The notes beneath the pieces are model-generated. The model saw only the letters and a list, made by a program, of their open reading frames with translations. It had not been told where the DNA came from and searched no databases. Below, piece by piece: positions 7,153 to 61,311 of a stretch of 64,000 bases of DNA; position 1 is the stretch's first letter; each line of letters opens with the position of its first letter. The stretch spans positions 6,741-70,740 of the forward strand of contig JAFLKR010000041.1 in the NCBI GenBank assembly GCA_019163135.1, written 5' to 3'. This stretch comes from Desulfobulbaceae bacterium (GTDB lineage Bacteria; Desulfobacterota; Desulfobulbia; Desulfobulbales; Desulfobulbaceae). Both the position numbers and the translations under genes were made by a program.

Positions 7153-8511
7153 ATGCCTGCAAACAAATCACAACACAGTCCGCTCGCCGAACGGATGCGT
7201 CCAACTCGGCTCGAGCATTTCGTCGGCCAGGAGCACTTGATTGGTCCGGGGAAATTCCTCTCGCAACTGATCGAAAGCAGCAGAATTCCATCCTTGTTGC
7301 TCTGGGGTCCGCCCGGTTCGGGCAAGACCACCTTGGCGACCATCCTCGCCCATGCGACCTCCGCCAATTTCGTCTTTTTCTCGGCGGTGCTCTCCGGGGT
7401 CAAAGAAATCAGACAGATTGTCGACCAGGCCAGGGATCTCCAACAACAAAGCGGGACCCCAACCATCCTCTTTGTCGATGAAATTCACCGCTTCAATAAG
7501 AGCCAACAAGATGCCTTTCTTCCCCATGTGGAGAACGGGTTGTTAACCTTGATCGGGGCCACCACTGAAAATCCGTCGTTTCAGATCACCGCACCCCTGC
7601 TTTCCCGTTGCCAGGTTCTGCTGCTGCTACCCTTGCAGCAGGAGGCCCTCAAAAAGGTAATCTGGCGGGCCCTGGCCGATAGCGACTCCGGGTTGGGTGC
7701 ACTTGCACTGACCCTCGACGAGCAGGCCTTGGCTCTCCTGGCGGAGGCAGCGGACGGTGATTGCCGCAGGGCTCTCAATCTCCTGGAAACTGCGGCCTCC
7801 CTGACCCTGGAGGCACTGCGACGGACCCCCCAGGCTGAGGGCAAACGGGTCATCACCACCGCCTGTGTGCAGGAAACCCTGCAGCAACGCACCCTACGAT
7901 ACGACGCCAAGGGCGAGGAACATTACAACCTGATCTCAGCCCTGCACAAGAGCTTGCGCGACAGCGATCCGGACGGTGCGGTCTATTGGCTGGGGAGAAT
8001 GCTGGTCGCCGGTGAGGATCCATTGTACCTAGCCCGGCGAATGATCCGTTTTGCCACGGAAGATATCGGCAATGCCGATCCCCAGGCCCTTCAGGTCACC
8101 CTCAATTGCCGAGAGGCCTTTCATATGCTGGGATCGCCGGAAGGAGACCTGGCACTGATGCAGGCTGCCATCTATCTGGCCACGGCGCCGAAAAGCAATG
8201 CCGTTTATACTTGCGCGCACAAGGTCCGGGAGGACATCAACCGCACAGGTTCCCTGCCCGTCCCCCTCCATTTGCGCAACGCCCCGACCGCACTGATGAA
8301 AGATTTTGGTTATGGCCACGGCTATCAGTACGCCCACGACGACCGCGACGGTCTGGTCCGCCAAGAGCATCTTCCGGCCGAACTAGCAGGCCGCACTTAT
8401 TATGAACCGACCAATCGCGGCTTTGAGGCCGTGATCAAAGACAGACTCACAAAATGGAAACTGATCCTCAAACAACGAGCCCAACAACATGAACAACAAA
8501 CCAAAAAATAA
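7153..8511 (+). CDS. rarA: Replication-associated recombination protein A (RarA/MgsA)
   Basis: [63 protein letters not shown]. Confidence 0.96.
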
Positions 8512-9499
8512 GCGCCTGCTACCATTCTTGATCCTGCTTGCCTTGCCCATCCTTGCGACCTTTTCCGCCAAGGCCACCGAGGCCGCCGCATTGCGACTGA
8601 TCTATGCCAACGACAACTTGGGCGAGCTCGATGGTTGCGGCTGAGGCCTCAACAAATTGGGCGGTCTGTCCAAAAAAGCATTCTTGATCAAGGGATTGGT
8701 CGCCGAACCCGGCAAATCGTCGTTGGTGATCAACGGCGGCAACCTCCTTTTTAAAGCGGATACGCTCGAACCGAGCACCGTTGAGGCTGCAAAAATCACA
8801 GCGGACACCATCATGCAGGCCACCCTCAAGATGGCCGGGACCATCGCCGGGGTCGGCACTACCGATCTGGCAGCAGGCATCAAATTTCTCCAACAATATC
8901 AAAAGCCGCTCGCCTTTACCTGGCTCTCCCTCAACATAGTCGATCCCGCCACCCGCAAACCCCTGTTCACGCCGGTAGTGCGGCAGGAGGTGGGCGGGTT
9001 GAAGATCGCGGTACTCGCCGTCACCGACCATGAGGCCTTACAAAACAAGACCGGTGATTTTCAGGTGGCACCTTGGCGGGAAACCTTGCATTCGGCCTTG
9101 GAAGGGCTCAGAGCGCAAGTCGATTTCATCCTGCTCCTGTCCAATTACGGGTTAGCTGAAAATCAAGATATCGCCAGAACCTGCACGGACATCGACCTCA
9201 TCCTCCAAGCCGGACATGCGGTCGGCAACATGAGCCCCCTCCTGATCAACCAGACCCTTATCGCCCAGGCAGAAACACGGGGGAAATATCTCGGAGTTCT
9301 GGATATCGATTGGAATGGACATGGACGTTGGGATGAGGCAAGTGCCCCCCAGTCACAGGCCAAAAACGGGCTAGCCTCCACCTACGCCAATCGCTTCATC
9401 GCCCTCAAGTTATCGATGACCAATGATCCCGAGGTTGAGGCGCTGGTCCATATGACCCAGCAACGGATCGAAAAACTACAGAAAGGCCTGCCGCAGTAA
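8489..9499 (+). CDS. Exported UshA-like (5'-nucleotidase N-terminal fold) selenoprotein; in-frame TGA at 8642-8644 read as Sec (codon 52)
   Basis: ATG 8489 gives a signal peptide then YANDNLGELDGCG-TGA-GLNKLGGLSKKA, in frame with the 8657..9499 ORF; SECIS-like hairpin follows the TGA. Confidence 0.88.
8657..8673 (+). promoter_or_regulatory. Putative bacterial SECIS element
   Basis: TTGGGC-GGTCT-GTCCAA: 6-bp stem (one G-U), G-initiated apical loop starting at the 19th nt after UGA, matching the general bacterial SECIS model. Confidence 0.7.
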
Positions 9500-9520: not shown

Positions 9521-9552
9521 AAAAAAAAAGGCCGCCCGAAGGCGGCCTTTTT
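9521..9552. terminator. Bidirectional intrinsic terminator between the UshA-like gene and ppaC
   Basis: AAAAAGGCCGCC-CGAA-GGCGGCCTTTTT with A/T tracts on both sides, between convergent genes. Confidence 0.9.
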
Positions 9553-9569
9553 CATATGCAAAGGTACTA

Positions 9570-10490
9570 TCAGCAGCCGAAAGCTTTCTGCAGATTAGGA
9601 ATGGTTTGTTTTTTGCGGCTCATCATGCCGTCGATCCACATGGAGTTGTTGGTGAGCTTGCCACCAAAAGCAGCTTCAATCATGGCAGGATCATCGGAAA
9701 TAACCATCAGGTCGGTTCCTTCTTTGACAACATCGGTGAGCATCAGCAGCACGGAATGACGCTCGCTGCCCTTCTGCTCTTTCATGGCGTTATACAGAGC
9801 ATCGCGCATATCGGCAACCTGCTCGAGGGTGGCAAGCTCAAGCTGGCCAACGCCGACTTTTTTGCCTTTCATGTCGAAATCTTTGTAATCCCGGTGCAGC
9901 AGATCCATGGGAGGAACGCCGGCAACCGCACTCTTGGCCTTCAACATTTCCATGAAGATCTCATCGGTATTGGTAACACCGGCGATGGCGGCCAACTCTT
10001 TCACTGCTTTTTTATCGGCAGGAGTACAGGTGGGGGACTTGAAATTAACGGTATCGCTGAGGATTGCGGAAAGCATCAAACCGGCAACCTTGGGGGCGAC
10101 TGCCACGCCGTCCAGATCGTACATAATTTTAAGAACGGTACAGGTGCAGCCAACCGGTTGATTGAAGTAATAAATCGGTTGATTGGTGGTAACATCACCG
10201 ATTTTATGGTGATCAACGATAGCCACAACATCGTTGGAACCGAGATTGTCCGGAGCCTGCGCCAGGTCGCTATGATCAACCAGCGCAACTTTCTTGCCAG
10301 CAGCGTCGGTCATGATCTCAGGGGCGGCAAAACCAAAACGTTTGAGAACAGTCTCTGTTTCGGGATTCAGTTTTCCCTGCATAACGGGGATATAATCTTC
10401 CCCTTTGGCTTTCATCAATTCAGCAAAAGCAATTGCTGCGGTTACTGAATCGGTATCCGGACTTTTGTGACCAAAAACATAAACTGACAT
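9570..10490 (-). CDS. ppaC: Manganese-dependent inorganic pyrophosphatase (family II)
   Basis: GHKSPDTDS, LVDHS, IVDHH (DHH), PVGCTCT, ILSDT, SRKKQ. Confidence 0.95.
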   Translation of the reverse strand: MSVYVFGHKSPDTDSVTAAIAFAELMKAKGEDYIPVMQGKLNPETETVLKRFGFAAPEIMTDAAGKKVALVDHSDLAQAPDNLGSNDVVAIVDHHKIGDVTTNQPIYYFNQPVGCTCTVLKIMYDLDGVAVAPKVAGLMLSAILSDTVNFKSPTCTPADKKAVKELAAIAGVTNTDEIFMEMLKAKSAVAGVPPMDLLHRDYKDFDMKGKKVGVGQLELATLEQVADMRDALYNAMKEQKGSERHSVLLMLTDVVKEGTDLMVISDDPAMIEAAFGGKLTNNSMWIDGMMSRKKQTIPNLQKAFGC

Positions 10491-10591
10491 AGCGTAATAC
10501 CTCCCAAAACTTGATAAATGACACATCAAATATGTGCGCTTCTCTTCTATCCCAGGCCTGACGTCGACCAGAAACAATAAAATTGAAGGAC

Positions 10592-12480: not shown

Positions 12481-14805
12481 ATGAATATCATCGAATTAAT
12501 TGGCAACACCCCGCTGGTTGAATTGCGTCGTCTCAATCCTTCCGCCGAATCCGTTCAACTCTTCGGCAAGCTCGAATCGCGCAATCCCGGCGGGTCTATC
12601 AAGGACCGGGTCGCCCTGTCCATGGTCGAGGCAGGGGAAAAAAGCGGCGAACTGACCCACGACAAAATCCTGCTGGAGGCTACCAGCGGCAATACCGGAA
12701 TCGGTATGGCTATGGTCTGCGCGGCCAAGCAGTACCGTTGCCAACTGATCATGCCGGAATCGGCCTCGATCGAGCGACGGTTGATCATGCAGGCCTACGG
12801 CGCGGAAATCATCCTGACCCCGGCCAAACGGGCCACCGACGGCGCCATCGAAAAAGCCTACGCCCTCGCTCGGGAGCACCCGGAGAGGTACTTCCTCGCT
12901 GATCAGTTCAACAATCCAGCTAACTGGCAGGCGCATTACAAATCCACCGCCCCTGAAATCTGGGCGCAGACCGGTGGCCGGGTCACCGATATCATCGTCA
13001 CTCTGGGAACCTCTGGAACAGCCATGGGTTTGTCCCGGTGGTTCCGGGATCATCACCCGGAGGTTCGGGTGATCGCGGTGGAACCCTATCTCGGCCATAA
13101 GATCCAGGGACTGAAAAACATGAAGGAGTCCTACAAGCCCGGTATTTTCGACAAGTCTCTGCCTTCTACCATCGTCAACGTGGCCGATGAGGATGCGTTT
13201 AGCACGGTCCGTCTTCTGGCGGCCGAAGAGGGCATTTTTGCCGGAATGAGCAGCGGGGCCGCGATTTTTGCCGCGATCGAAAGGGCGAAAGAGTTGTCCG
13301 AGGGCTGCATTGTCACCATCCTGCCCGATGGCGGTGAACGGTATCTGAGCACCTCGCTGTTCGTGAAGCGGGAAAAGACGCCGGAGAAAACTTCCCAGTT
13401 ACGGCTATTCAACACCATGTCCCGGAAAAAAGAGGTCTTCCGACCGATCAGTGAAAACCGCGTCACTCTCTATGCCTGCGGCCCCACTGCCTTTGAGCCG
13501 CCTAACCTCGCCCACTGCCGCCGGTTTATCGTCGCCGATCTCATCAAACGTTTTTTGCACCACTGCGGCTATGCGGTGGAATCGTACATGAATTTCACCG
13601 ACATCGACGACAATACTATTGCCGGGGCCATTGCGACCAACGCCAACCTGAAAGATTTCACCGGCAAATATATCGAGGAGTTCATGCATGCGGCCGAGAT
13701 CCTCAGCGTGGAAAAGGCGGCGGGCTACCCCCTGGCTTCCGAACACATCGGCGACATGATCGAAATCGCCCATGACCTGATACACAAAGGCTATGCCTAT
13801 GAAAAACACGGCTCAATTTATTTCGACATCTCCAAATTCAAGCAATACGGCCGGCTGTCCGGCATCGATCTGAGCAAGATCAAACTCGGCCAGACCGTGG
13901 ATCTTGACAATTACGAGAAAGATAATCCACGTGATTTCACCCTGCTCAAACGTTCCACCTTGGCAGAATTGAAAAAAGGCATCTTTTTTGAGACCGATTG
14001 GGGCAACATCCGGCCCGGCTGGCATATCGAGTGCTCGGCAATGTCCACCAAATACTTAGGCGAAACCATCGATATCCATACCGCCAGCCAGGACCTAGTC
14101 TTCCCACACCATGAAAACGAGATCGCCATTGCTGAGGCACTCACCGGTAAACCTCTTGCGAATTACTGGGTGCATTCCGGCCAACTGTTGAAGGATGGCC
14201 GCAAAATGGCGGATGCCACCGGAAATGTGGTGACCCTCAAAGAGGTGCTGGACAAGGGCTATGACGGCCGGGAACTCCGTTTCATGCTGATGGGCGTTCA
14301 TTACCGCAAGCCCCTGATTTTTTCCTACAAACGATTGAACAGCGCTCGGACGGCATTGAAAAGGATTGATGAATACACTCGCAAACTCCTCTGCCTACCC
14401 GCTGGCCTGCCCCATCCCGAGGTGACGGCTTCGTTGTCCGAGTTGGAAAAACAGTTCATTGATGCCATGAACGACGACCTCAATATCTCTGGGGCCATTG
14501 GGGCGCTTTTCAATTTTATCAAGCAGACCAACCCAATAGTGCAGTCAAGGAATCTTGATCGCGATCAAAAAAACGATATACTGGAAGTCCTGCGGATGAT
14601 CAATACGGTGCTTGGCATTCTCCGACTGGAGCATTGCCCCTTGACCCCGGAGATCGACCGACTCATCCGTCAACGCGAGCGGGCTAGGCAACTCAAGGAT
14701 TGGACGGCAGCGGATTCAGCTCGAGAAGAGTTGCTGAGCAAAGGAGTAACCATTCACGATACGGCGGTTGGACCAATCTGGGAACAAATCAAAGAAGGAG
14801 CGTAG
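12481..14805 (+). CDS. Fusion: PLP-dependent cysteine synthase (CysK/CysM family, ~aa 1-295) + cysteinyl-tRNA synthetase-like domain (~aa 310-774)
   Basis: NPGGSIKDR (PLP Lys), EATSGNTG, GTSGT, HKIQGLKN, PDGGERYLST; then CGPT, NFTDIDD, RPGWHIECSAM, DLVFPHHENE, DDLN, AR..KDW..AD..R; one uninterrupted ORF. Confidence 0.93.
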   Translation: MNIIELIGNTPLVELRRLNPSAESVQLFGKLESRNPGGSIKDRVALSMVEAGEKSGELTHDKILLEATSGNTGIGMAMVCAAKQYRCQLIMPESASIERRLIMQAYGAEIILTPAKRATDGAIEKAYALAREHPERYFLADQFNNPANWQAHYKSTAPEIWAQTGGRVTDIIVTLGTSGTAMGLSRWFRDHHPEVRVIAVEPYLGHKIQGLKNMKESYKPGIFDKSLPSTIVNVADEDAFSTVRLLAAEEGIFAGMSSGAAIFAAIERAKELSEGCIVTILPDGGERYLSTSLFVKREKTPEKTSQLRLFNTMSRKKEVFRPISENRVTLYACGPTAFEPPNLAHCRRFIVADLIKRFLHHCGYAVESYMNFTDIDDNTIAGAIATNANLKDFTGKYIEEFMHAAEILSVEKAAGYPLASEHIGDMIEIAHDLIHKGYAYEKHGSIYFDISKFKQYGRLSGIDLSKIKLGQTVDLDNYEKDNPRDFTLLKRSTLAELKKGIFFETDWGNIRPGWHIECSAMSTKYLGETIDIHTASQDLVFPHHENEIAIAEALTGKPLANYWVHSGQLLKDGRKMADATGNVVTLKEVLDKGYDGRELRFMLMGVHYRKPLIFSYKRLNSARTALKRIDEYTRKLLCLPAGLPHPEVTASLSELEKQFIDAMNDDLNISGAIGALFNFIKQTNPIVQSRNLDRDQKNDILEVLRMINTVLGILRLEHCPLTPEIDRLIRQRERARQLKDWTAADSAREELLSKGVTIHDTAVGPIWEQIKEGA

Positions 14806-34703: not shown

Positions 34704-35318
34704 ATGGCAAAGGTAACCCTTGATTGTATCGGACTCCCCTGTCCCCAACCTGTGCTACGCACCAAAGACGCACTGGAACAAGGCGCCGGCGCAGTCGAGG
34801 TAATGGTCGATAATGAGGCTTCTCGAAACAATGTCGCCCGCTTTGCGCAGAGCAGGGGCCACCAGGTGACAATTACCGCCCGACCGTCGGGCCATTTCAC
34901 CATTTCAATTACCGCAGCCGCCGGGCAAACCCCAGCATCGGAGAACCTCGACGATTATAGTTGCGACCTGCCCCAAAAGTTGCGTTTGGTGTATGTCATC
35001 TCTGCTGACTCCATGGGACGCGGCAATGACGAATTAGGTTGGGCCTTGTTGCAAACCTATATCCAGACCATCAAAGACGTCGACCCGCTGCCCGAAAAAA
35101 TTATCTTTTATAATAGCGGCGTTAAACAGGTGACCACCGAATCTGGCGCCTTGGACGCCTTAAAACAGTTGCAGGCGCTAGGTGTTGAAATTCTTGTCTG
35201 CGGGACTTGTCTCGACTTTTTCAATCTGAAATCAGCGATCAAAGTGGGGCACATTTCCAATATGTACGATATTATGCATTCGGTCATTAACGCCGATAAG
35301 ATTGCCAGCCCTTATTAA
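34704..35318 (+). CDS. yedF: Sulfurtransferase-like selenium metabolism protein YedF (TusA + DsrE-like domains)
   Basis: LDCIGLPCPQPV, MGRGNDELG, FYNSGV, CGTCLDFF, SNMYDI. Confidence 0.88.
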   Translation: MAKVTLDCIGLPCPQPVLRTKDALEQGAGAVEVMVDNEASRNNVARFAQSRGHQVTITARPSGHFTISITAAAGQTPASENLDDYSCDLPQKLRLVYVISADSMGRGNDELGWALLQTYIQTIKDVDPLPEKIIFYNSGVKQVTTESGALDALKQLQALGVEILVCGTCLDFFNLKSAIKVGHISNMYDIMHSVINADKIASPY

Positions 35319-38407: not shown

Positions 38408-39427
38408 ATGAAGTACGCCTTCCCTTTGGCGGCAGTAATTGCCCTGGTGTTGTTAGCGCTTATCCTGGTACAGATACCTGGTATGCAATACCTCTTTGGT
38501 GTTGCAATTCCATACCTGGCCATGGCGCTGTTTTTAGGTGGTTTTTGTTATCGGATAATCCATTGGGCTAAATCGCCGGTGCCTTTCAAAATTCCGACCA
38601 CCTGCGGCCAGGGCTACTCGTTGCCTTGGATCAAACACGATAAGCTGGAAGCCCCGGTTAACACCGCCCAGGTTGTTGCCAGGATGTTTCTGGAGATTTT
38701 CCTATTCCGCTCACTGTGGCGCAACACTAAGGCCACTGTGTATGATGGCCCGAAATTGACTTACGAGTCAAGCAAGTGGCTGTGGCTGTTCGGTATCCTT
38801 TTCCATTACAGCTTCCTGGTGGTTATAATTCGCCACATGCGGCTCTTCCTGGACCCGGTACCGTGGCCCGTTGCCTTCCTGGAAATGGGCGACTCTTTGC
38901 TACAGATCGGCGCTCCCACGATGTACACCACTGACGTCACCATAGTGTTAGGCCTGCTTTTTCTCTTCGGTCGTCGCCTGATGAATCCGCAAGTCCGCTA
39001 TATCTCACTGGCTAATGATTACTTCCCGCTCTTTCTCATCCTCGGGATTGTAACCACCGGTGTTTTAATGCGATTTTTCCTACGCACCAATGTCGATATC
39101 AACGCCATCAAACAGTTGGCTGTGGGTTTGGTGACGTTTCACCCGGTCATCGTGACCAAAATCAGTTCTTTATTTTATGTACATGTTTTCTTAGTATGCA
39201 TTCTGCTTGCGTATTTTCCTTTCAGCAAGCTCATGCACATGGGTGGTGTGTTCCTCAGCCCAACCAGAAACCTGGCCAACGATTCGAGAATGAAACGCCA
39301 TATCAATCCCTGGAATCCCGATATCAGACCGCATTCCTACGCTGGTTATGAGGATGAATTCCGTGCCGATATGGTTGAGCAGGGCATTCCCGTTGAGAAA
39401 GAGTTGCCGCCGCAGGCTAATGACTAA
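38408..39427 (+). CDS. dsrM: DsrMKJOP complex cytochrome b subunit
   Basis: SPVPFKIPTTCGQ, FHYSF..IRHMR, YFPFSKLMHMGGVFLSPTRN; first gene of the intact cluster. Confidence 0.96.
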   Translation: MKYAFPLAAVIALVLLALILVQIPGMQYLFGVAIPYLAMALFLGGFCYRIIHWAKSPVPFKIPTTCGQGYSLPWIKHDKLEAPVNTAQVVARMFLEIFLFRSLWRNTKATVYDGPKLTYESSKWLWLFGILFHYSFLVVIIRHMRLFLDPVPWPVAFLEMGDSLLQIGAPTMYTTDVTIVLGLLFLFGRRLMNPQVRYISLANDYFPLFLILGIVTTGVLMRFFLRTNVDINAIKQLAVGLVTFHPVIVTKISSLFYVHVFLVCILLAYFPFSKLMHMGGVFLSPTRNLANDSRMKRHINPWNPDIRPHSYAGYEDEFRADMVEQGIPVEKELPPQAND

Positions 39428-39460
39428 CGCTGGAAAATTCAAGAGTATAAGGATAGAGCA

Positions 39461-41092
39461 ATGGCAGTAGTAAAGGTAGATAAGTTGGCAAGGAGCGTTG
39501 CCGAGGGACCTTCGCTGATGACAGGCTCCATACCAACCAAAGATTGGATGGATGTACCTGTAGTATTCAAGCCTGGAAATTACGCCTACCCGACCAAGCC
39601 TGAAAAGCTTCGGTATCTGGATAGTCAGCAGGGAGTCAGCTTCCCCAATGCACGCGAATGGAATCCTGAGGATGAAGATTGGAAACTTCCAGATAATTGG
39701 AAGGAGATCATCATGCAGGGATTGGCGGATCGGCTTGATCGCTTCCGCTCACTGAAAATTTTCATGGATTGTTGTGTCCGCTGTGGAGCGTGTGCGGATA
39801 AATGCCACTTTTTCCTCGGCACCGGCGATCCTAAAAACATGCCGGTCCTGCGAGCTGAACTGCTTCGGTCGGTATATCGCCAGGATTTCACCCTTGCCGG
39901 TAAGATTCTCGGCAAGTTGGCCGGCGGTCGCGAGATGACCACAGGCGTCCTGAAAGAATGGTTCATGTACGCCTATCAGTGTACGGAATGCCGTCGTTGT
40001 TCGGTTTTCTGTCCCTACGGTATCGATACCGCCGAGATCACCATGATGTTGCGCGAATTGCTCCATCTAGTCGGTATCGGTATCAACTGGGCAATGGAAC
40101 CAGTCGCCAATTCCAACCGTACCGGTAACCACATGGGGCTCACGCCCCAGGCCTTCAAGGGTAATGTCGATTTTCTCTGCGAGGATATCGAAAACCTCAC
40201 TGGGGTCAAGGTTAACCCTACCTTTAATCGTAAAGGCGCTGAAGTGTTGTTCGTCACACCATCAGCAGACGTCTTCGCCGAGCCAGGTATTTTCACCTGC
40301 ATGGGCTACCTCCTCCTATTTGAGGCGATTGGCCTTGACTATACCTGGTCCACCTATGCCTCGGAAGGCGGCAACTTCGGCTTGTTCACCAACAACGAGA
40401 TGATGAAAAAGCTGAACGCCAAAATGTTTGCCGAATCCAAAAGGTTGGGCGTCAAATGGATTCTGGGCGGTGAATGCGGGCACATGTGGCGGGTTGTTCA
40501 TCAGTATATGGATACCATGAATGGACCTGCTGATTACCTTGAAGTTCCCCGGTCCCCGATCACCGGGACGGTCTTTGAAAATGCCAGAGCCACCAAGATG
40601 GTTCATATTTCGGAGTTCACCGCCGACCTGATCAAAAACGGCAAACTCAAGTTCGACAAAAGCCGCAACGCCCACATCAAGGCCACCTTCCATGATTCGT
40701 GCAATCCTGCCCGGGCAATGGGACTGTTGGAGGAGCCTCGATACATTCTCGACCATGTCGTCGATAATTGGGTGGAAATGCCGGAAAATACCATCCGCGA
40801 AAAAACGTTCTGCTGCGGATCCGGAACGGCACTTAATACCGATGAAATTATGGAACTTCGTATGCGGTCCGGTCTGCCTCGAGCGAATGCCGTGAAGCAT
40901 GTCCACGATAAGCACGGCGTCAACACGCTGGGCTGTGTATGCGCCATCGACCGAGCTACCTTAACAAGCCTCATGGATTACTGGGTACCTGGAGTTCAGG
41001 TGGCAGGCTTAAGCGAGCTTGTCGGTAACGCATTGGTGATTGAAGGTGAGCAACGACAAGAACTGACCGAAGGGCTCAGGACCTTGGTTTAA
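39461..41092 (+). CDS. dsrK: DsrMKJOP complex catalytic Fe-S/CCG subunit
   Basis: CVRCGACADKCH, CTECRRCSVFCP, GECGH, HDSCN, CCGSG, CAID. Confidence 0.97.
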   Translation: MAVVKVDKLARSVAEGPSLMTGSIPTKDWMDVPVVFKPGNYAYPTKPEKLRYLDSQQGVSFPNAREWNPEDEDWKLPDNWKEIIMQGLADRLDRFRSLKIFMDCCVRCGACADKCHFFLGTGDPKNMPVLRAELLRSVYRQDFTLAGKILGKLAGGREMTTGVLKEWFMYAYQCTECRRCSVFCPYGIDTAEITMMLRELLHLVGIGINWAMEPVANSNRTGNHMGLTPQAFKGNVDFLCEDIENLTGVKVNPTFNRKGAEVLFVTPSADVFAEPGIFTCMGYLLLFEAIGLDYTWSTYASEGGNFGLFTNNEMMKKLNAKMFAESKRLGVKWILGGECGHMWRVVHQYMDTMNGPADYLEVPRSPITGTVFENARATKMVHISEFTADLIKNGKLKFDKSRNAHIKATFHDSCNPARAMGLLEEPRYILDHVVDNWVEMPENTIREKTFCCGSGTALNTDEIMELRMRSGLPRANAVKHVHDKHGVNTLGCVCAIDRATLTSLMDYWVPGVQVAGLSELVGNALVIEGEQRQELTEGLRTLV

Positions 41093-41120
41093 TTTACCGG
41101 CAGGAATTGGAGGAATAGCA

Positions 41121-41492
41121 ATGTATGACAGTGGTAAAATAATCCCGGGACTGATCATTTTTGTCCTGTTTATCACGATACCCATCTGGTACAACCGCGG
41201 CACTGCTGCGTCCGTGCCCAAACCGGTTTTACCGAAAGACGCCAAGATGTGTGTCCTGCCGGCAGCGGAAATTCGCTCAGAGCATATGAAGTTATTGAAC
41301 ACTTGGCGTGATGAAGTTTTACGGACTGGGGATCGTGGTACTTTTGAGCTGGAAGGCAAAAAATACCAAAAAAGTCTGATGTTGACCTGTATGAAGTGCC
41401 ACACGAGTAAAAAGCAGTTCTGTGACACGTGCCACACGTATGCATCGGTTAAACCATATTGTTGGGATTGCCACATAGCTCCTGTTGAGTGA
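41121..41492 (+). CDS. dsrJ: Triheme cytochrome c subunit
   Basis: Three CxxCH motifs (CMKCH, CDTCH, CWDCH); CV..EHMKLLNTWRD. Confidence 0.96.
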   Translation: MYDSGKIIPGLIIFVLFITIPIWYNRGTAASVPKPVLPKDAKMCVLPAAEIRSEHMKLLNTWRDEVLRTGDRGTFELEGKKYQKSLMLTCMKCHTSKKQFCDTCHTYASVKPYCWDCHIAPVE

Positions 41493-41515
41493 ACGGCTAA
41501 GGAGGAGATATACAG

Positions 41516-42349
41516 ATGGACAAGAATAGAAGAAATTTCCTCAAGGTAGCCGGTATTTCAACACTGGCTGGCCTTGGTGGTACTGCGGTCGTTGATCGGT
41601 TGGTCGGCGGAACGAGCCTGGCGCAGGCCGCTGCTGATTCCGGCCATGATGTCGATCAGGCAAAAGGCGCGCAAGGACACGGAGAGATCCCAAGTTCGAG
41701 CGGCAATCGCTATGGCATGATCATTGATATTAAAAAATTTCAGCAAGATCCCAGTCTAGGCGAAAAGGCTGTACAGGCTTGTCATTCAGTTCACAACGTC
41801 CCTCAATTTCCTGATAAGAAAGATGAGATCAAATGGATTTGGATGACCAATTTTGAAAATGCCTTTCCGACCAGCAGCAACCCGTATCGAGATGAGGCTA
41901 CAGCAAAACATCAGCTCCCCATCCTTTGCAACCATTGCGATCAACCTCCTTGTGTCCGGGCCTGCCCCACCAAGGCGACCTTTAAGAATAAAGACGGCAT
42001 CATCATGATGGATTACCATCGCTGCATCGGTTGCCGCTTCTGCATGGCCGCCTGCCCCTATGGCAGCCGGAGTTTCAACTGGCGCGATCCTGAAGCGTTT
42101 GTCAAAAACGCCAATCATGTTTATCCGCGGAGAACGCGGGGTGTCGTTGAAAAGTGCAACTTTTGCGATGAGCGAGTAGGAGCCGGCAAGCAACCTGCCT
42201 GTGTCGAGGCTTGCGGAGAGAGCAAAGCAATTGTCTTTGGCAATCTCAACGATCCTGATTCCGAGATCAGAAAAATGCTGAAAGAAAATCATACGATTCA
42301 GCGTAATCCTGCACTCGGCACCATTCCTTCTGTCTTTTATATTGTATGA
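41516..42349 (+). CDS. dsrO: Tat-exported Fe-S subunit
   Basis: RRNFLK Tat motif; CNHCDQPPCVRACP, CIGCRFCMAACPY, KCNFC. Confidence 0.95.
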   Translation: MDKNRRNFLKVAGISTLAGLGGTAVVDRLVGGTSLAQAAADSGHDVDQAKGAQGHGEIPSSSGNRYGMIIDIKKFQQDPSLGEKAVQACHSVHNVPQFPDKKDEIKWIWMTNFENAFPTSSNPYRDEATAKHQLPILCNHCDQPPCVRACPTKATFKNKDGIIMMDYHRCIGCRFCMAACPYGSRSFNWRDPEAFVKNANHVYPRRTRGVVEKCNFCDERVGAGKQPACVEACGESKAIVFGNLNDPDSEIRKMLKENHTIQRNPALGTIPSVFYIV

Positions 42350-42356
42350 GGCCGCC

Positions 42357-43529
42357 ATGTTTGAAAAAGCATTAAAAGGAAACAATTATTACTGGATGTG
42401 GCTGGCCTTTCTCGGCTTTTTTATTGCCATAGCAGCTGTCTGTTATCTCAGGCAATATTTTTATGGACTGGGTCTCACCGGGATGAGCCGTGATGTATCC
42501 TGGGGACTCTACATTTCCCAATTCACCTTTCTGGTCGGCGTTGCCGCCGGAGGGGTTATGCTGGTTCTGCCGTATTATATCCATGATTACAAGGCATTTG
42601 GTCGCATCACCATTTTGGGTGAATTCCTTGCGATATCAGCCCTGCTCATGTGCCTGATGTTCATCATGGCCGATTTAGGGCAGCCCTTGCGCGGCCTGAA
42701 CGTCATGCTTTACCCCACACCGGGTTCCATGCTTTTCTGGGATATGTGCGTCCTCTGGGGTTACCTGATTCTGAACGCGCTCTGTGGTTGGGTGATTCTG
42801 ACAGCTGAACGCAAGGGTGTGCATCCACCGAAATGGATATACTTCTTCGTATATCTCTCCATTCCCTTTGCATTCTCGATCCACACGGTCACCGCGATGC
42901 TCTATTGCGGTCTTCCTGGACGCCACTTTTGGCTATCGGCTATCATTGCTCCCCGCTTCCTCGCATCCGCTTTTGCCGCCGGTCCTGCACTGATCGTGGT
43001 CATTGCTTTGATCCTGAAGCGGGTGGCTAACTTCGACGCCGGCAAGGAAGCGCTCAATAAAATGGTGACCATCATCATTTATGCGGCCTTGGCCAACATG
43101 TTTTTTGTCGGTCTGGAATTCTTTGTCGGTTTTTACTCCAACATTCCTGGCCACATGCATACCCTGCAGTACCTGTTCTTCGGCCTGGAGCATCATGGCC
43201 ATGTCTATAACAACCTGGTACCGTTCATGTGGGGCTTTATCGCCCTGTTCCTGGTCGGAATTTCCCTGCTTATCCATCCATATACCAGAAAGCAGAGCGA
43301 TCTCTGGCTGGGCATTGGCTGCGCTTCCATTTTCTTCGCCTTCTGGTTGGATAAAGGCATCGGCTTTGTGCTCGGCGGGTTTGTCCCGACCCCGACCGAA
43401 GAAATCGTTGAATACTATCCGACCATCAACGAACTGTTCATCACCATCGGTATCTGGGCCACCGGATTTTTCATCCTGACCGTCCTGTACAAGATTGCCA
43501 TCAGCGTGGAACACGAAATAGAAGCATAA
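42357..43529 (+). CDS. dsrP: NrfD/PsrC family membrane subunit
   Basis: GLTGMSRDVSWGLYISQFTF, DLGQP, HTVTAML, PRFLASAF. Confidence 0.95.
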   Translation: MFEKALKGNNYYWMWLAFLGFFIAIAAVCYLRQYFYGLGLTGMSRDVSWGLYISQFTFLVGVAAGGVMLVLPYYIHDYKAFGRITILGEFLAISALLMCLMFIMADLGQPLRGLNVMLYPTPGSMLFWDMCVLWGYLILNALCGWVILTAERKGVHPPKWIYFFVYLSIPFAFSIHTVTAMLYCGLPGRHFWLSAIIAPRFLASAFAAGPALIVVIALILKRVANFDAGKEALNKMVTIIIYAALANMFFVGLEFFVGFYSNIPGHMHTLQYLFFGLEHHGHVYNNLVPFMWGFIALFLVGISLLIHPYTRKQSDLWLGIGCASIFFAFWLDKGIGFVLGGFVPTPTEEIVEYYPTINELFITIGIWATGFFILTVLYKIAISVEHEIEA

Positions 43530-51978: not shown

Positions 51979-54294
51979 TCAGATGACCATCTGACCGGTG
52001 ATCAGTTGCCCGTCGAACACCTTGGCGAGGTTGTTGTCGATGACGTAGATGCAAATTTCTTTGGCGCCTTGACGGCTATAGCCGAATTTCTTCTGGAGAT
52101 TCTCCATCATAAAACCGACATCGCTTTGGACTTTTTGATCATAGGTCTTGAATGACTCCTGATCGAACTCCTTGACCGCCCGCCTGAAATTTTCGTTTTC
52201 CTGAAACGGTATCATCACCTTGTCTTTGAGATTATGGATATACCGCTCGTGGAGGTGAAGATAGAGCGTGGTTTCGGTGATATCCAGGTTGTCGCGCAGG
52301 ATTTCCTGGGTGAGGGCTGTCGTGGTATAGGTCCTCTGGACGCTATTTCTGAACGCAACGGCCTCACTGGGTTTGACCATCAGCCGGGATTCGATCCGCT
52401 GAAAGAAGGTCTCGGTAATCTCCAACTTTTCCTTGGTGAACCGGCAGATCTCCGTGGTGCCCGGTTCAAAGTTGACCGCAAACATATAATTCTGAAGGTC
52501 TTTGGCAATCTGCTCCTCGTTATAATAGTACAGCGACTCCTTGACCGACTGCAGAACCGAATAGTTGTACATCCGCACCAATGAATCCAGAAAGCCCACG
52601 GGCAGTATCTCTTTATCTTTCTTGCAGTATTTCCTAAAAAATTTGCCGAGCATGGACATATCGATCAATTTGTCGTCCCGCTCGTAGGTCGAATAAAATT
52701 CGTTGAACATCCGGATGGAGTCACGGCCGGAAAGGCCTCGCCAGCCATCCTGCTCGGACTCGGCAATAATCTTGAGCCGTCGCTTCGAGGTGAACCGTTC
52801 CACGTCCTCCTCCTCCAACCAGGCCGGGATATATCCGGTATAAATCTCCATCTTGAGCAGTTGCAGATTCCGGTCGCAGTAGAGTTCATACTTTTCGAAA
52901 TCCTTGATCCACTCCAGCATGGCATCCGATTTGGCCCGCAGGCGGGTGGCGACGATCACCCGGGCAAAATTATGGAGCACCCTCGGCAGAAAACTCTTAT
53001 CGATGTCCTTGCCAAAAACCCCGCGGTATATCTCCACCTCCGTTTTGATATCAAGGACATAGGGAATATTGACATATTCGATTCGATCCGAAAAGGCGGC
53101 CAGATCGGTCAGCACCTTCTTGTCCTCGGGATTCATCAGGGCGAAAAACAAGGAGTTGACCCGCTCCTCAATCTGCTCGACCTTATGGACGCCGTCACTG
53201 ATGATATTGTGCAGATCCATCAAGCGTTCGGTGTTGTGCGACTTGACATCCATGAGGGCATAGATGCCGTTGTTGATCTTGGCATAATTGGAATAGAGGT
53301 AAGGCACCTTGCCGCTCGTTGAAAACATACCATCAAGCGAACGCTGCACGTCCTCGTTGCTGATGACATTCTTCAATGACCGCCGGTCACCCGGGTTAAA
53401 GACGGAGATGCCGTTGCCCAATCGGCGATTGAAAACATAGGGCCGGGCCGAGATGCATTCGAAAACCTTCAGAGGATCCCCGTATTGCTTGAGCAATTCC
53501 TGGTACAAGGAGGTGCAGATCGTGCACGGCTCATCCCGAAAAACCCATTCATATTTCTTTTCGGTAAAAAGAAGCCTTTTAAAATGGTCGTCTTCGAGGA
53601 GGTCGTCGAGAAAACGGCGGCGGATTTCTTTGGGCACCAGCAGAATCGGGTGATCATGGCTGGGGCAGGGCAGGGTCAGCACGCTCGCTGAACCGGCGTT
53701 ATTTTTTTCCATGTGGAGATGACGACTGTTGCCGCCGGTCTCGTCAGGCAATTCGTCCCCCAGCAACCGGGAGAGTTTGGTTGCCAGAGAGACCACGCTG
53801 TGGACGCCTCCGGCCAGGATATTTTCCTTAAGTTTCCAGACCACCTCAAACCGGGTGCCCTCCGGGGTGTTGGCATACTGCTCGAATTTACGCAACAGAT
53901 TGTTGAGAAAGGTGGATTTGCCGCTGCCGTGCGGCCCGTCAAAGATATAAATTTTGTTCTGCTGGTCGCCGACCGACAGGGATTCCACATGCCTGATCAA
54001 CCGGTTGGCAAAGAGACGATCCGCAAAAAACGGCCGGTCCGAACCTTCGACGAACAATCGGCTGCAATCATAGTTGAGGTAATTGATGGATTCCGGGTCA
54101 TCCCGGTATTCGTCGACGCCGTCACGGACAAAATAATGCACCATATCAGCATAAACCTGGGCGACATTGCGGATGTTCCGTTCGGGCCGCTCGACCACTT
54201 CCCGCAGGTAGTCGGTAAAAGAAAGTTCAGATTGATGATTCCGATTGCCCTTGTATTGCTCAAGAGTATGCAAGGCCTTGGTCAGTTCACGCAT
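51979..54294 (-). CDS. PrkA/YeaG-family AAA+ protein, second paralog
   Basis: Walker A GPHGSGKST; CPSHDHP; NNGIYALMD; FSDRIEY.NIPY. Confidence 0.85.
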   Translation of the reverse strand: MRELTKALHTLEQYKGNRNHQSELSFTDYLREVVERPERNIRNVAQVYADMVHYFVRDGVDEYRDDPESINYLNYDCSRLFVEGSDRPFFADRLFANRLIRHVESLSVGDQQNKIYIFDGPHGSGKSTFLNNLLRKFEQYANTPEGTRFEVVWKLKENILAGGVHSVVSLATKLSRLLGDELPDETGGNSRHLHMEKNNAGSASVLTLPCPSHDHPILLVPKEIRRRFLDDLLEDDHFKRLLFTEKKYEWVFRDEPCTICTSLYQELLKQYGDPLKVFECISARPYVFNRRLGNGISVFNPGDRRSLKNVISNEDVQRSLDGMFSTSGKVPYLYSNYAKINNGIYALMDVKSHNTERLMDLHNIISDGVHKVEQIEERVNSLFFALMNPEDKKVLTDLAAFSDRIEYVNIPYVLDIKTEVEIYRGVFGKDIDKSFLPRVLHNFARVIVATRLRAKSDAMLEWIKDFEKYELYCDRNLQLLKMEIYTGYIPAWLEEEDVERFTSKRRLKIIAESEQDGWRGLSGRDSIRMFNEFYSTYERDDKLIDMSMLGKFFRKYCKKDKEILPVGFLDSLVRMYNYSVLQSVKESLYYYNEEQIAKDLQNYMFAVNFEPGTTEICRFTKEKLEITETFFQRIESRLMVKPSEAVAFRNSVQRTYTTTALTQEILRDNLDITETTLYLHLHERYIHNLKDKVMIPFQENENFRRAVKEFDQESFKTYDQKVQSDVGFMMENLQKKFGYSRQGAKEICIYVIDNNLAKVFDGQLITGQMVI

Positions 54295-59903: not shown

Positions 59904-60803
59904 TCACTTAACCTGCCCCATGGCAATTTTGAGGTTGTCTATCCAAAGCGCGACCAGGGAATCAACCTCGGCCAGGCCTTTGAGAACGGGCACACTCTCA
60001 ATCCCCGCCTTGCTCAACTGACTTTTCCAGGAATCAGCCTCGTCGCCGGCCATATCGTTGAGGGCATGATCGCCGGCCACGGTCATGAACGGCACAAGGT
60101 AGGCCTTTTTTATGCCTTTTTTCACCAGCATCTCTTTGACTTCGTCAAAGGTCGGATGGCCCTCAACCGTACCGATATACATATTTGCATCCCGTTTCTG
60201 CAGCTTATACATCAGAGCAGAATAAATAGCGTCGCTGGGGTGATGGGTGCCGTGTCCCATGAGCACAACCGCTTCACCGGGCTTCCGCTCTTTCGGGACG
60301 ACATCGGCGACAATCGCCTGCAGCACTCTTTCCATGGACTCGTCGGTGGTCAGCATCGGGTACGAGACAACCACCTTGCCTATCCCCCCGGACATCTGCT
60401 CAAACAGCTTGGTATTGGCATAAATTTCGTGGAACTCGGCCCCCGTGATCATATGCAGGGACTGCACCACCACCTTGGTGTAGCCGTCATCCATCAACTT
60501 GGCCATAGCGGTTTCGGGAGAATCGATCTGAACTCCGTTTTTCGCCAGTTTTTTTCGTATTATCTTGGAGGTGTAGGCCCAGCGGATTTCGGTACCCGGG
60601 AAGGTTGCTCTCACCTGTTTTTCGATATTGACGAAAGCTACCTGGGCGCTGGGGACACTGGTGCCGAAAGTCACCAGCAGGATGGCAGGCCCCTTGACGT
60701 CTGTGGCCGGATGCCCCTGGTCGGGGCTGCCTGCCAGGCAGGAGAAAGGCAGCAGAAAAAAAAGCAGCAGGGTGAAAACCAGGCCTTTTACTTGACAATA
60801 CAT
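59904..60803 (-). CDS. cbiK: Exported sirohydrochlorin cobaltochelatase (periplasmic CbiK type)
   Basis: Signal peptide (FSCLA); LVTFGTS, QSLH...GAEF, MGHGT, PFMTVAGDHALNDMAG, SWKS. Confidence 0.92.
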   Translation of the reverse strand: MYCQVKGLVFTLLLFFLLPFSCLAGSPDQGHPATDVKGPAILLVTFGTSVPSAQVAFVNIEKQVRATFPGTEIRWAYTSKIIRKKLAKNGVQIDSPETAMAKLMDDGYTKVVVQSLHMITGAEFHEIYANTKLFEQMSGGIGKVVVSYPMLTTDESMERVLQAIVADVVPKERKPGEAVVLMGHGTHHPSDAIYSALMYKLQKRDANMYIGTVEGHPTFDEVKEMLVKKGIKKAYLVPFMTVAGDHALNDMAGDEADSWKSQLSKAGIESVPVLKGLAEVDSLVALWIDNLKIAMGQVK

Positions 60804-61217
60804 ATTGCATTTCCTCACTGATATCGAAGAGTTAAAGAAGTTAACCGGAGACGTTTCCCCGAATAGGCATTTTTGCAACCATTCCGATGCAACCGCAACG
60901 GCGCGAGAAGCACTATTGACTCCGCATTGCCCCCTCAGACCGCCTGCGAAACAGGCGCAGAAGCAACAAATCCATTACATTTGGTGAAAAACAGAACGGA
61001 AATTCCGCAGGACACAGGGTAGAGACCAGCGGGATACTGCCGGCAAACAGTATCGCCGCGCGGCCTACCGGACATGGCAAAAGAGGTAGGGGCTCCTGGT
61101 CTGACGGAAATTCCATAACAGTCGATCGGATTCGTTCTTCCAAGGCGAGTCAACCTTGCCAAGGGAGCAATGCTGAGCGGAGACCTCCTCTGCGCTTCGC
61201 TGTTCGATGCCGAGGAC

Positions 61218-61256: not shown

Positions 61257-61311
61257 GCCCTGGTGAATCCACGTATCTGCGCCGTCTCTCAGGTCCACGG
61301 AGAGCGACTGT

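Follow-up and report, generated by a model that had tools for sequence, protein, structure and literature searches.

A 'COG0737, UshA-like' selenoprotein with a CxU motif has been catalogued since 2008 (Zhang and Gladyshev, PMC2398784) and is also listed in PMC9312934 and PMC13188914, and the catalogue entries in the retrieved passages of these papers give no function for it. Our literature search on the corresponding family, NF041198, returned catalogue entries only as regards functional studies, and the passages retrieved contained neither biochemical data for any family member nor a function assigned to YedF. [quoted passage not shown]

Here we describe a gene of this kind from an uncultured Desulfobulbus, located on a 64-kb stretch of DNA which was analysed as a whole and is called the window in the following. 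With Sec written as Cys, the encoded protein matches NF041198 with 300.9 bits against a curated cutoff of 275 (E 1.6e-89). The gene is a member of an already known family, as had been claimed from the sequence alone, and what is new in this respect is one further member. The tetrahaem module of the canonical form, the linkage to selD-yedF or yedF and the overlap with rarA are points that are absent from the literature passages retrieved. Taking gene, Sec, fold, redox role and substrate together, we regard it as probable that 8489–9499 is a single gene encoding an exported NF041198 protein of about 336 aa with the properties described below.

The reading frame, the UGA codon and the hairpin

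Starting with the ATG at 8489, the frame runs through 51 codons (with NDNLGELDGCG at the end) into an in-frame TGA and continues from there for 284 further codons up to the terminal TAA (Table 1). The 280-aa ORF given by ORF finders, with TTG 8657 as its start, is only a part of these 284 codons. The same gene organisation recurs in 37 of 37 loci, and a scan of the window for other in-frame TGA candidates revealed none that was convincing. The signal peptide was called by eye from the sequence, and an equivalent N-terminus was recognised in the same way in all 38 sequences; in the model of a full-length Cys-type relative, residues 2–13 form a helix that is followed by a low-confidence linker. 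At its start the gene shares the last 23 nt of rarA, which is located upstream in all 36 loci having upstream sequence and overlaps the ATG in 35 of these Desulfobulbaceae loci, mostly by 26 nt, and distant Sec-type long forms show the same arrangement. No promoter-like site was found between the two genes. As the kept overlap implies co-expression, rarA and the selenoprotein gene are probably co-transcribed and translationally coupled, and there is no evident functional link between the two.

Table 1: Features at and around the selenoprotein gene in the window.
Feature	Position	Strand	Basis or remark
rarA (RarA/MgsA-type AAA ATPase)	7153..8511	+	matches RarA-type models
UshA-like (seleno)protein gene, NF041198 member, short haem-less form	8489..9499	+	336 codons including Sec52; stop TAA 9497-9499
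Sec-type signal peptide (predicted)	8489..8584	+	K/R-rich n-region, hydrophobic core LLPFLILLALPILATF, A-K-A / T-E-A cleavage motifs
Motif I remnant N41-D42-N43-L44 (canonical D-x-H)	8609..8620	+	D42 invariant; His position L/R/M/V/Q
C50-G51-U52 motif, Sec codon TGA 8642-8644	8636..8644	+	column counts in 38 sequences and Cys-type relatives
SECIS hairpin, 6-bp stem (8657-8662 with 8668-8673), GGUCU loop 8663-8667	8657..8673	+	comparative evidence
Motif II remnant G84-N85 (canonical G-D)	8738..8743	+	position N in 35/38, A in 3/38
Motif III remnant G123-T124-T125-D126 (canonical G-N-H-E/D)	8855..8866	+	Asn/His positions vary; D126 invariant
Motif IV remnant S218-N219 (canonical S-H)	9140..9145	+	alignment and column counts
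Motif V remnant G242-H243-A244-V245 (canonical G-H-x-H)	9212..9223	+	first His in 30/38 only; second hydrophobic
Bidirectional intrinsic terminator, 13-bp stem	9524..9553		between selenoprotein gene and convergent ppaC
ppaC	9570-10505	minus	convergent to selenoprotein gene
yedF, selenium-metabolism marker	34704..35318	+	TIGR03527 205.8 bits vs cutoff 110

At the Sec column a TGA is present in 47 of 47 Sec-type homologous loci, a count that includes 37 of 37 readable genome loci and 9 further Sec-type loci, and at their ends these genes use differing stop codons (21 TAA, 12 TGA and 3 TAG). Counting all genes, 47 have Sec and 10 have Cys in this column. The latter was found in P0148, P0154, P0212 and L125–L128, and among distant Cys-type relatives in L050, L053, L056 and others; the motif of the Cys orthologues reads EPCGC. 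Orthologues with Cys at this position are rare. Gly51 and Sec52 are invariant and the partner Cys50 is present in 33 of the 38 sequences; as it is missing in the other five, a selenenylsulfide cycle cannot be obligatory. The residue before Cys50 is Gly in 22 and Pro in 11 of the 38 sequences, the window protein reading GCGU and the family label being 'PCGU'. For the 18 codons 5' of the TGA a pN/pS of 0.38 was obtained, and purifying selection acts on the coding sequence to either side of the UGA at 8642.

The hairpin TTGGGC-GGTCT-GTCCAA begins 12 nt past the TGA and also codes for L57-G-G-L-S61, extending to the second base of the K62 codon. An exact copy of its 15-nt core is present in 46 of the 47 Sec-type genes, and none of the 10 Cys-type genes has it intact. 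Each of the core codons GGC, GGT, CTG and TCC is represented by one codon only in 38 of 38 sequences, while no codon-invariant column exists among the 31 other conserved degenerate columns (35 including the four core codons), and the synonymous divergence pS is 0.089 in the hairpin core vs 0.63–0.64 in the flanks. Covariation is seen at the basal pair (U-A in 22 sequences, C-G in 13, no pairing in 3) and RNAalifold gives the same hairpin from the alignment. As a single sequence, 8630–8710 gave a local fold that is not significant (z-score −0.68) and has a different structure. Rfam SECIS families were found neither in the whole window at gathering thresholds nor in 8600–8740 at permissive E-values. 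With the bSECIS model the hairpin agrees in three of the four points, namely its loop of 5 nt with GG at the first positions, followed by U, its stem of 6 bp and the UGA-to-loop spacing of 18 nt. It differs in being very short, in lacking a conserved extended lower stem and in its weak single-sequence energy, which at −6.4 kcal/mol in the window and −7.3 kcal/mol for the C-G variant just misses the required value. It is a minimal SECIS hairpin, the nucleotide sequence of which is frozen only in UGA-bearing genes, and the pairs of Sec-type and Cys-type genes show cleanly, in a natural setting, how a SECIS constraint comes and goes on one peptide motif.

Because the in-frame UGA is conserved, the SECIS freeze is lost in the Cys-type orthologues and Cys pairs with Sec at the same column, the prediction that the window gene encodes a hidden selenoprotein is supported by the comparison of homologous sequences. 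A sequence-only reading had proposed such a selenoprotein from this one locus, and the ATG overlapping rarA, the in-frame TGA and the 280-aa ORF behind it proved to be exact in coordinates and frame. The putative signal peptide and the hairpin that it had recognised are found again in the homologues, the linkage to rarA is real and conserved, and the homologue alignment it had suggested as a check gave the Sec/Cys column described above. Regarding its Cys-Gly-Sec motif, Sec is invariant but Cys is not. The 64-kb window contains none of the genes selA, selB, selC and selD, and a search for tRNA-Sec in the window and in 39 loci was negative. Standard gene calling splits the gene, which is then either unannotated or represented by a 41–91-aa 'gene' and a truncated product of about 280 or about 470 aa, and an intact N-terminus is present in only 4 of the 132 representative sequences examined. 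The frozen 15-nt core provides a simple nucleotide signature with which such split genes can be found and repaired.

Fold, former metal site and haem module

Structures were modelled for residues 53–336 of the window protein and for one full-length Cys-type relative. The model of the window protein (pLDDT 89.4) matches the N-domains of SoxB, UshA and CD73 with TM values of 0.70–0.77, and Foldseek gave E values of 1e-12 to 1e-18 against the N-domain fold of UshA and CD73. The modelling shows that the predicted fold is that of the N-terminal metallophosphoesterase domains of UshA, CD73 and SoxB. In the full-length model of the Cys-type relative the motif is located in a low-confidence loop of 19 residues between strand 1 and helix 1, and helix 1 begins 8 residues past the Cys/Sec column. 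A thioredoxin-like arrangement with Sec as N-cap two residues before helix 1, as derived from the truncated model, is refuted by this full-length model.

The metal motifs were compared by HMMER alignment to solved relatives (e.g. 2z1a with 'HTNDTHAH') and by column counts in the 38 sequences. In these alignments DxH is changed to DNL, GD to GN, GNHE to GTTD, SH to SN and GHxH to GHAV. The Asp of motif I is the only canonical ligand position that is invariant, all others being replaced or variable, and the alignments show the dinuclear-metal ligand set to be dismantled across the whole NF041198 family. The C-terminal 5'-nucleotidase domain is absent, as the protein ends at residue 336 without a Pfam match. 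Both the substitutions and the missing domain had been listed in the sequence-only reading, which had also asked for a structure prediction to place the CGU motif; the modelled position is the low-confidence loop described above. Its metallophosphoesterase scaffold with lost ligands is supported as well, with the correction that the loss is a property of the family and not special to the window gene.

The match of the window protein to NF041198 covers profile positions 3–280 of 519 and a short second stretch, and the full-length architecture of 519 positions is not seen in it. The full-length member L034 covers positions 5–518 with 526 bits, and its haem module matches Pfam Cytochrome_C554 (PF13435) with 36.1 bits. 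This long form accounts for 80 of the 132 representatives, 79 of them with four CxxCH motifs, and most members of NF041198 have an architecture with a coiled-coil insert and a C-terminal tetrahaem module of the cytochrome c554 type. Neither the insert of about 70 residues nor the tetrahaem module is present in the window protein and its Desulfobulbus orthologues. As the published family consists of the COG0737 domain plus CxU, we treated the haem module as the majority architecture and not as defining, and the window gene was therefore filed as a short-form member; it is a derived short form lacking the canonical tetrahaem tail. A separate haem module was looked for in the window and up to 10 kb from the short-form loci, with none found, and the only ORF of the window with several CxxCH motifs is a putative DsrJ. 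The question whether homologues neighbour multihaem cytochromes, raised in the earlier reading, was apt: a tetrahaem c554-type module is part of the canonical form itself, and the window gene has lost it. In a metagenome scan the haem pattern was dominant, and the matches were mostly unrelated c554-type cytochromes.

Neighbourhood, possible function and competing explanations

In one clade of Cys-type orthologues the gene is located directly after selD-yedF or yedF. This adjacency is found neither in L039 and L128 nor in any Sec-type locus, and as it is confined to a single Cys-type clade, the observations are not phylogenetically independent. The neighbourhoods of distant family members (22–28% identity) are heterogeneous and uninformative. 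A yedF gene is also present in the window, as had been noticed before, and lies 25 kb from the selenoprotein gene, physically unlinked. The selD-yedF operons of the Cys-type orthologues point to selenium/sulfur chemistry as a putative role, which is more specific than the periplasmic 'redox or metal-binding' protein suggested previously; that this protein would not be a nucleotidase is supported, and the neighbours refine the remainder of this proposal.

In our best reading the protein would work in the periplasm as a CG(U/C) redox protein, the targets of which may be selenium or sulfur species. SelB would read the hairpin and insert Sec52, and after Sec-dependent export the C-G-U motif would serve as a redox-active selenol, either together with the thiol or on its own. 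From the topology, the motif may be part of a flexible, Gly-rich loop which departs from strand 1 next to the site of the lost metal pocket. The long forms might exchange electrons between the motif and the fused haems; the short form would need a separate periplasmic partner or might act as a carrier, and a partner for the haem-less short form was not identified. Selenium or sulfur species in reduced or oxidised form, bound by the selenol, would be the most likely substrates, which is suggested because the Cys-type orthologues directly follow selD-yedF or yedF.

Other explanations start from the gene product itself. If UGA 8642 were an ordinary stop, the locus would encode an exported peptide of 51 aa and a separate cytoplasmic protein of 280 aa starting at TTG 8657, in line with public gene calls that give 280-aa products, with upstream 'genes' of 41–91 aa called in L040, L043, L129 and L130 and with a TTG or CTG start being available in most loci. 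We give next to no credence to this, as the internal stop is TGA in all 47 genes while the terminal stops are mixed, only Cys codons replace it in orthologues, and the nucleotide freeze tracks the UGA. Moreover, the 280-aa product would be left without strand 1 of the fold and without a signal peptide, and its supposed start is located inside the conserved hairpin, being ATG in L029 and CTG, a poor start, in 15 of 38 aligned sequences and 3 further Sec-type loci. It is extremely unlikely that the short form is decaying and became non-functional when the haem module was deleted. Coiled-coil insert and haem module are both gone and no replacement partner was found nearby, but with its Sec, SECIS and putative signal peptide the short form is intact in more than 30 species at 40–80% identity, about 30 residues are invariant, selection is purifying, and the upkeep of a costly Sec codon argues for function.

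With respect to the chemistry, the protein could still be a metal-dependent hydrolase, i.e. a nucleotidase or phosphoesterase, the remodelled mononuclear site of which would bind its metal through Sec52, D42, N85 and D126. The retained fold, the invariant D42 and D126, H243 in 30 of 38 sequences and a new set of invariant polar residues lining the old pocket would fit, and JGI pipelines call homologues 2',3'-cyclic-nucleotide phosphodiesterase. Nevertheless, we consider this very unlikely, as the whole family has other residues at five of the seven canonical ligand or catalytic positions and does not conserve the His that remains, the C-terminal nucleotide-binding domain is absent, curated nucleotidase models reach only 13–25 bits vs cutoffs of 436–2554, and the four c-type haems fused in most members argue for electron transfer and not for hydrolysis. 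A possible, if rather unlikely, alternative is an enzyme or carrier of the sulfur cycle that does not handle selenium, namely a SoxB-derived periplasmic domain with its own Gly-rich C-G-U arm, on which persulfide, polysulfide or thiosulfonate sulfur would be carried or processed. In the long form, the haems would couple this chemistry to the respiratory chain of Desulfobulbaceae that reduce sulfate or disproportionate sulfur. Among the profile matches the SoxB model ranks second (TIGR04486, 63.5 bits vs 25 for UshA), and among structures SoxB fits the window model best (TM 0.76–0.77, rmsd 3.1–3.3 Å). The G-C-G-U-G loop would also resemble the GGCGG arm of SoxY on which SoxB acts. In addition, dsrMKJOP is present in the host, and YedF itself is sulfurtransferase-like, of the TusA/DsrE type, according to the retrieved passage of PMC5322559. 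However, sox or other sulfur genes are adjacent in no locus, 29 kb separate the gene from the dsr cluster, the metal ligands of SoxB are absent, and selD and yedF are the only recurrent functional neighbours. The affinity to SoxB is also not robust, as UshA outranks it for the full-length long form.

Coming back to the periplasmic redox protein acting on selenium or sulfur species, a far-reaching version of it would see in the NF041198 family the periplasmic entry step so far missing from bacterial selenium assimilation, with a CG(C/U) reductase or carrier wired to haems, which is speculative and in our opinion unlikely to be correct. Here the flexible Cys-Gly-(Cys/Sec) loop would capture oxidised, elemental or thiol-bound selenium, the four haems would supply the electrons for its reduction, and the selenium would be passed towards YedF and SelD. 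The selD-yedF-X placement of the Cys-type versions would avoid the bootstrap problem that selenium is needed to acquire selenium, and the Desulfobulbus short form would be a haem-less derivative with a separate electron donor. Together, the haem fusion, the lost metal site and the selD-yedF-X arrangement turn an 'unknown function' into concrete experiments.

Comparison with known systems

With the other members of NF041198 the window protein shares the C-G-U at the same column, the putative signal peptide and the ligand-less phosphoesterase domain, and it differs in having Gly and not Pro before the Cys. The SECIS core is common to it and the long-form members, and the long-form orthologues L034–L036 occupy the same chromosomal locus with rarA upstream and ppaC downstream. 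In the related UshA-like domain of 'UshA-like (seleno)protein family 2' (NF049981), Sec is likewise found in the loop that follows strand 1, but its motif is CxxU and not CxU, and with 43.8 bits vs a cutoff of 140 the window protein is not a member.

SoxB (PDB 2wdc, 4uwq) is periplasmic, as predicted for the window protein, has the same N-terminal metallophosphoesterase fold with the superposition values given above and is the best profile match of a characterised family, but the score is far under its cutoff of 550. The window protein lacks the metal ligands and the C-terminal domain of SoxB, and SoxB has neither Sec nor a haem fusion; sox genes are not found nearby. SoxB as the uniquely closest structure was rejected as not robust, with UshA ranking first for the long form. 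The 5'-nucleotidases E. coli UshA and CD73 are exported, as predicted for the window protein, which has the same N-domain fold and keeps the Asp of motif I. In contrast to them, replacements affect the His positions of motifs I and IV, the Asp of motif II, the Asn-His of motif III and the second His of motif V in the window protein, which also lacks their C-terminal nucleotide-binding domain and scores 25.2 bits against NF007109 (cutoff 600).

The in-frame UGA and its hairpin

Direct reading of the window exactly reproduced the start codon, TGA, continuing frame and hairpin described in the sequence-only reading (see table), and the 280-aa ORF returned by ORF-finder begins at TTG 8657, which is merely the first start codon past the TGA. 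In a homologue search with the read-through product as query, the best 120 matches are each about 280 aa long and each span only ~83% of the query; therefore all of them are cut at the same place. We retrieved 38 loci of species-representative genomes, with Desulfobulbus or Desulfobulbaceae making up almost all of them. The codon in the column of interest is TGA in 37/37 readable loci, preceded by a signal peptide and N-D-x-x-G-E-x-x-x-C-G and followed by x4-L-G-G-L-S-K/R-K, and at their true ends these genes use different stops (TAA in 21, TGA in 12 and TAG in 3). For the 18 codons before the TGA, pN/pS is 0.38 with synonymous sites near saturation (pS 0.64). Cys-type orthologues, carrying a Cys codon at this column, exist as well, and both outcomes had been named beforehand as support for selenocysteine. 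In public gene calls the pre-UGA segments appear as separate genes of 41–91 aa without Pfam match, which is a systematic misannotation.

Features of the selenoprotein gene, its family and its surroundings (window positions unless a locus is named)
Feature	Position	Strand	Remarks
RarA/MgsA-type AAA ATPase gene	7153-8511		upstream gene
Overlapping frames	8465-8511		rarA C-terminal tail and first ~8 selenoprotein codons; equivalents in 35 loci
Start ATG	8489	+	23 nt inside 3' end of upstream gene
Pre-TGA segment	from 8489	+	51 codons: [51 protein letters not shown]
In-frame TGA	8642-8644	+	
Post-TGA segment	ends TAA 9497-9499	+	284 further codons, same frame
Hairpin TTGGGC-GGTCT-GTCCAA	8657-8673	+	12 nt past TGA
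Bidirectional terminator	9524-9553		13-bp stem
Cysteine synthase–cysteinyl-tRNA synthetase fusion	12481-14805	+	single 774-aa ORF, both parts full-length
dsrMKJOP-like cluster	38408-43529	+	NarI-like membrane protein, Fe-S protein, triheme cytochrome, Fe-S protein, NrfD-type protein
DsrJ-like membrane-anchored triheme cytochrome	41121-41489		three CxxCH, no Pfam match
PrkA-type serine kinase genes	51979-54294; 57450-59513	-	paralogous, 3 kb apart; PrkA AAA and C-terminal domains
CbiK cobalt chelatase gene	59907-60878	-	
Cobalamin riboswitch	61303-61483	-	RF00174, 122 bits; upstream of CbiK gene
Pre-UGA 'genes' (public gene calls)	L040 3983-4126; L043 7860-7988; L129 5713-5988; L130 5863-5988		each directly upstream of truncated main ORF
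TatA genes and C_GCAxxG_C_C family gene	L041 8361-9191; L127 8503-9339	-	adjoin Cys-type members
SorB-resembling protein	L039 5307-6671	+	454 aa; same strand, after Cys-type member
Motif I Asp (D42)			invariant in 38 sequences
Motif I His			L/R/M/V/Q in 38 sequences
Motif II Asp			N in 35, A in 3 of 38
Motif III Asn			variable (T/S/V/A and others) in 38 sequences
Motif III His			mostly Arg, 24/38
Motif IV His			N in 35, S in 3 of 38
Motif V first His			H in 30/38
Motif V second His			hydrophobic in 38 sequences

As a single sequence the hairpin is unimpressive (-6.4 kcal/mol, local fold z-score -0.68), and an Rfam search matched no SECIS family at the hairpin or in the window. Compared with the bSECIS model as quoted in an excerpt of PMC13188914, it agrees in three of four criteria (size of the loop, G at its first positions and a spacing of 18 nt) and narrowly misses the energy threshold. 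Across the alignment of 38 sequences 15 consecutive nt are invariant (TG GGC GGT CTG TCC A), and among 35 conserved residues with degenerate codons the only single-codon columns are the consecutive G58-G59-L60-S61 (38/38), of which GGT is a codon in the minority at all other Gly columns of the gene. Synonymous divergence is 0.089 in this core versus 0.63–0.64 in the flanks. At the base of the stem U-A (22 of the 38 sequences) alternates with C-G (13), the pair being broken in the other 3; this covariation ties a synonymous change at Leu to an exchange between Lys and Arg, and RNAalifold independently returned the same 6-bp stem with a 5-nt loop.

The best control for the SECIS is a natural one, the comparison of Sec-type (TGA) with Cys-type genes. 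The exact core is kept in 8/8 further Sec-type genes of other lineages (L040, L043, L045–L048, L129 and L130) and lost in 10/10 Cys-type genes, three of which (L041, L127 and L128) still encode LGGLS with drifted codons (GGT to GGG/GGC, CTG to CTC and TCC to TCG). As the core is lost in Cys-type genes even where LGGLS is encoded, the nucleotide freeze tracks the UGA and not the peptide. It is thus this comparative evidence, with invariant core, covariation and loss in Cys-type genes all supporting the hairpin, that decides the matter: judged by sequence, TGA and hairpin are more than chance. L100, a Sec-type gene that is very distant, differs in sequence at the core position and presumably uses another SECIS; near 9296 it reads EECG-TGA-KSGRKGGLARR, with four CxxCH motifs and without the GGC GGT CTG TCC core.

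Fold, former metal site and haem module

Scored with Sec written as Cys, the product reaches 300.9 bits against NCBIfam NF041198 'UshA-like (seleno)protein' (cutoff 275), with lower scores for SoxB (63.5, cutoff 550), family 2 NF049981 (43.8, cutoff 140) and UshA (25, cutoff 600); a Pfam search of the product gave no match. The predicted structure of residues 53–336 is confident (pLDDT 89.4, pTM 0.89) and was compared with N-terminal metallophosphoesterase domains, giving TM 0.76–0.77 for SoxB and 0.70–0.74 for UshA and CD73. SoxB as single closest structure was dropped, because UshA is the first-ranked match of a full-length long relative. When the classical motifs are registered by HMMER alignments to solved relatives and counted over the 38 sequences (see table), the dimetal site is dismantled across the family, so that the disarmed scaffold proposed for the window protein extends to its relatives. 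A different set of polar residues is invariant, namely N41, D42, G51, U52, D126, N149, S218, Y220, Q240 and N247, with E46 nearly so (36/38) and the partner Cys50 present in 33/38.

Orthologous loci at the same chromosomal position (L034–L036) encode longer proteins with four CxxCH motifs; that of L034 matches NF041198 with 526 bits over profile positions 5–518 of 519 and ends in Pfam Cytochrome_C554. Searching 1.84 billion representatives with a profile gave 215 relatives at E < 1e-30. Among 132 examined relatives the long form accounts for 80 (four CxxCH motifs in 79 and three in one), and an intact N-terminus is present in only four, three of them reading EPCGC. The canonical architecture is thus an exported CG(U/C) domain, then a coiled-coil insert, then a tetrahaem cytochrome c, overwhelmingly with Sec; relative to it, the window protein and its orthologues in Desulfobulbus are a derived short form that has neither insert nor haem module. 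The link to multihaem cytochromes that the sequence-only reading suggested checking among homologues exists as a fusion in most members. For the short form, a search of the window and of 10 kb around short-form loci gave no separate copy of the haem module; the window's sole multihaem cytochrome candidate is the DsrJ-like protein.

At the orthologous locus with rarA upstream, C-terminal parts were also lost module by module: L036 lost only the coiled-coil insert (460 aa, four CxxCH motifs kept) and L038, from a 'Desulfobulbus propionicus' MAG, only the haems (379 aa, insert kept), its motif being P-G-G-U without Cys. Very distant relatives (22–28% identity), mostly Cys forms, keep EPCG(C/U) together with, apart from L056, four CxxCH motifs; L056 has three.

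Genomic neighbourhood

The overlap with rarA noticed in the window is real and conserved: rarA precedes the selenoprotein gene in 36/36 loci with upstream sequence, and in 35 of these it runs over the start of that gene, most often by 26 nt. The arrangement also occurs in more distant Sec-type long forms and does not hold in L129 and L130. Synteny extends beyond this pair, in the order minus-strand regulator, rarA, selenoprotein gene, convergent ppaC and BI-1/YccA-type gene; the locus is a vertically inherited core region, and the overlap implies co-expression without suggesting a function. In most loci the ATG is preceded, at a distance of 11–17 nt, by a conserved A(A/G)(C/A)G(A/G)GC, a possible weak ribosome-binding site.

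Elsewhere in the window, the 774-aa fusion matches TIGR01136 (358.9 bits, residues 4–294) and TIGR00435 (400 bits, residues 307–769), and by tblastn it is full-length with 90–95% identity in L001 and L003 and is also seen in L002, whose contig ends after the first ~134 residues. The dsrMKJOP-like cluster fits a sulfate- or sulfur-metabolising host.

The informative genomic context is that of the Cys-type orthologues. The order selD, yedF, family gene is found in L041, L125 and L126, L042 has yedF followed by the family gene, and in L127 yedF lies 5.3 kb upstream, past a cydAB insertion. Curated models identify SelD (TIGR00476, 382 bits) and YedF (TIGR03527, 203 and 191 bits) in L041/L042, and the L125–L127 assignments follow from 61–81% identity to these proteins. 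Two other Cys-type loci, L039 and L128, lack the link. Because the linked loci come from a single clade, they do not count as independent cases; the genes downstream of them vary, however, so the arrangement survived rearrangements. The window itself has yedF 25 kb from the selenoprotein gene and no selD within its 64 kb. According to excerpts of PMC5322559, YedF is statistically tied to SelD with its function not assigned, and the UshA-like family goes unmentioned there.

The C_GCAxxG_C_C family adjoining Cys-type members is itself counted among selenoprotein families in the consulted parts of PMC9312934 and PMC13188914; the L041 gene also matches a split-Soret cytochrome c model (122.9 bits, below the cutoff of 400). 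The c-type cytochrome region of the L039 protein resembles SorB, the cytochrome subunit of sulfite dehydrogenase, with 88.8 bits falling narrowly short of the cutoff (93).

Proposed function and relation to the catalogued family

In the model of a full-length Cys-type relative (pLDDT 84) a low-confidence loop of 19 residues bearing C-G-C comes after strand 1, and helix 1 begins only at the L of 'GGLSKK'; therefore the motif is placed on a flexible Gly-rich loop leaving the old motif I strand, which locates CGU by predicted topology relative to the former metal site. A Sec capping helix 1 was an artefact of a truncated model, contradicted by the full-length one, and was withdrawn.

With gene structure, UGA, SECIS, Cys/Sec pairing, fold, metal-ligand loss and haem fusion in most relatives established, we propose that Sec52 would be inserted in a SelB-dependent manner, that the protein would be exported via the Sec pathway and that a mobile loop next to the former metal pocket would carry a redox-active selenol. 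The long forms might pass electrons between this selenol and their fused haems; the short form would need a separate partner or might act as a carrier. Since some sequences lack Cys50, no selenenylsulfide cycle can be obligatory. The foremost substrate candidates are selenium or sulfur species, in view of the selD-yedF linkage and the SoxB similarity, a functional hypothesis suggested by gene neighbourhood in one clade.

In the catalogue literature on the family, as far as its consulted parts go, we did not find the tetrahaem architecture as family norm, the haem-less Desulfobulbus form as its derivative or the SECIS relaxation in Cys-type genes, and the same applies to the selD-yedF adjacency there and in the excerpts of PMC5322559. 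Overall the earlier interpretation as an exported UshA-like selenoprotein with a disarmed scaffold and a CGU redox or metal-binding motif is supported. A 'COG0737, UshA-like' selenoprotein with a CxU motif is listed in the 2008 GOS selenoproteome (PMC2398784) and the family recurs in the 2022 and 2026 reviews (PMC9312934 and PMC13188914, the latter with the NF041198 label), the entries consulted giving no function; the family being already catalogued, the window gene therefore joins a known one.
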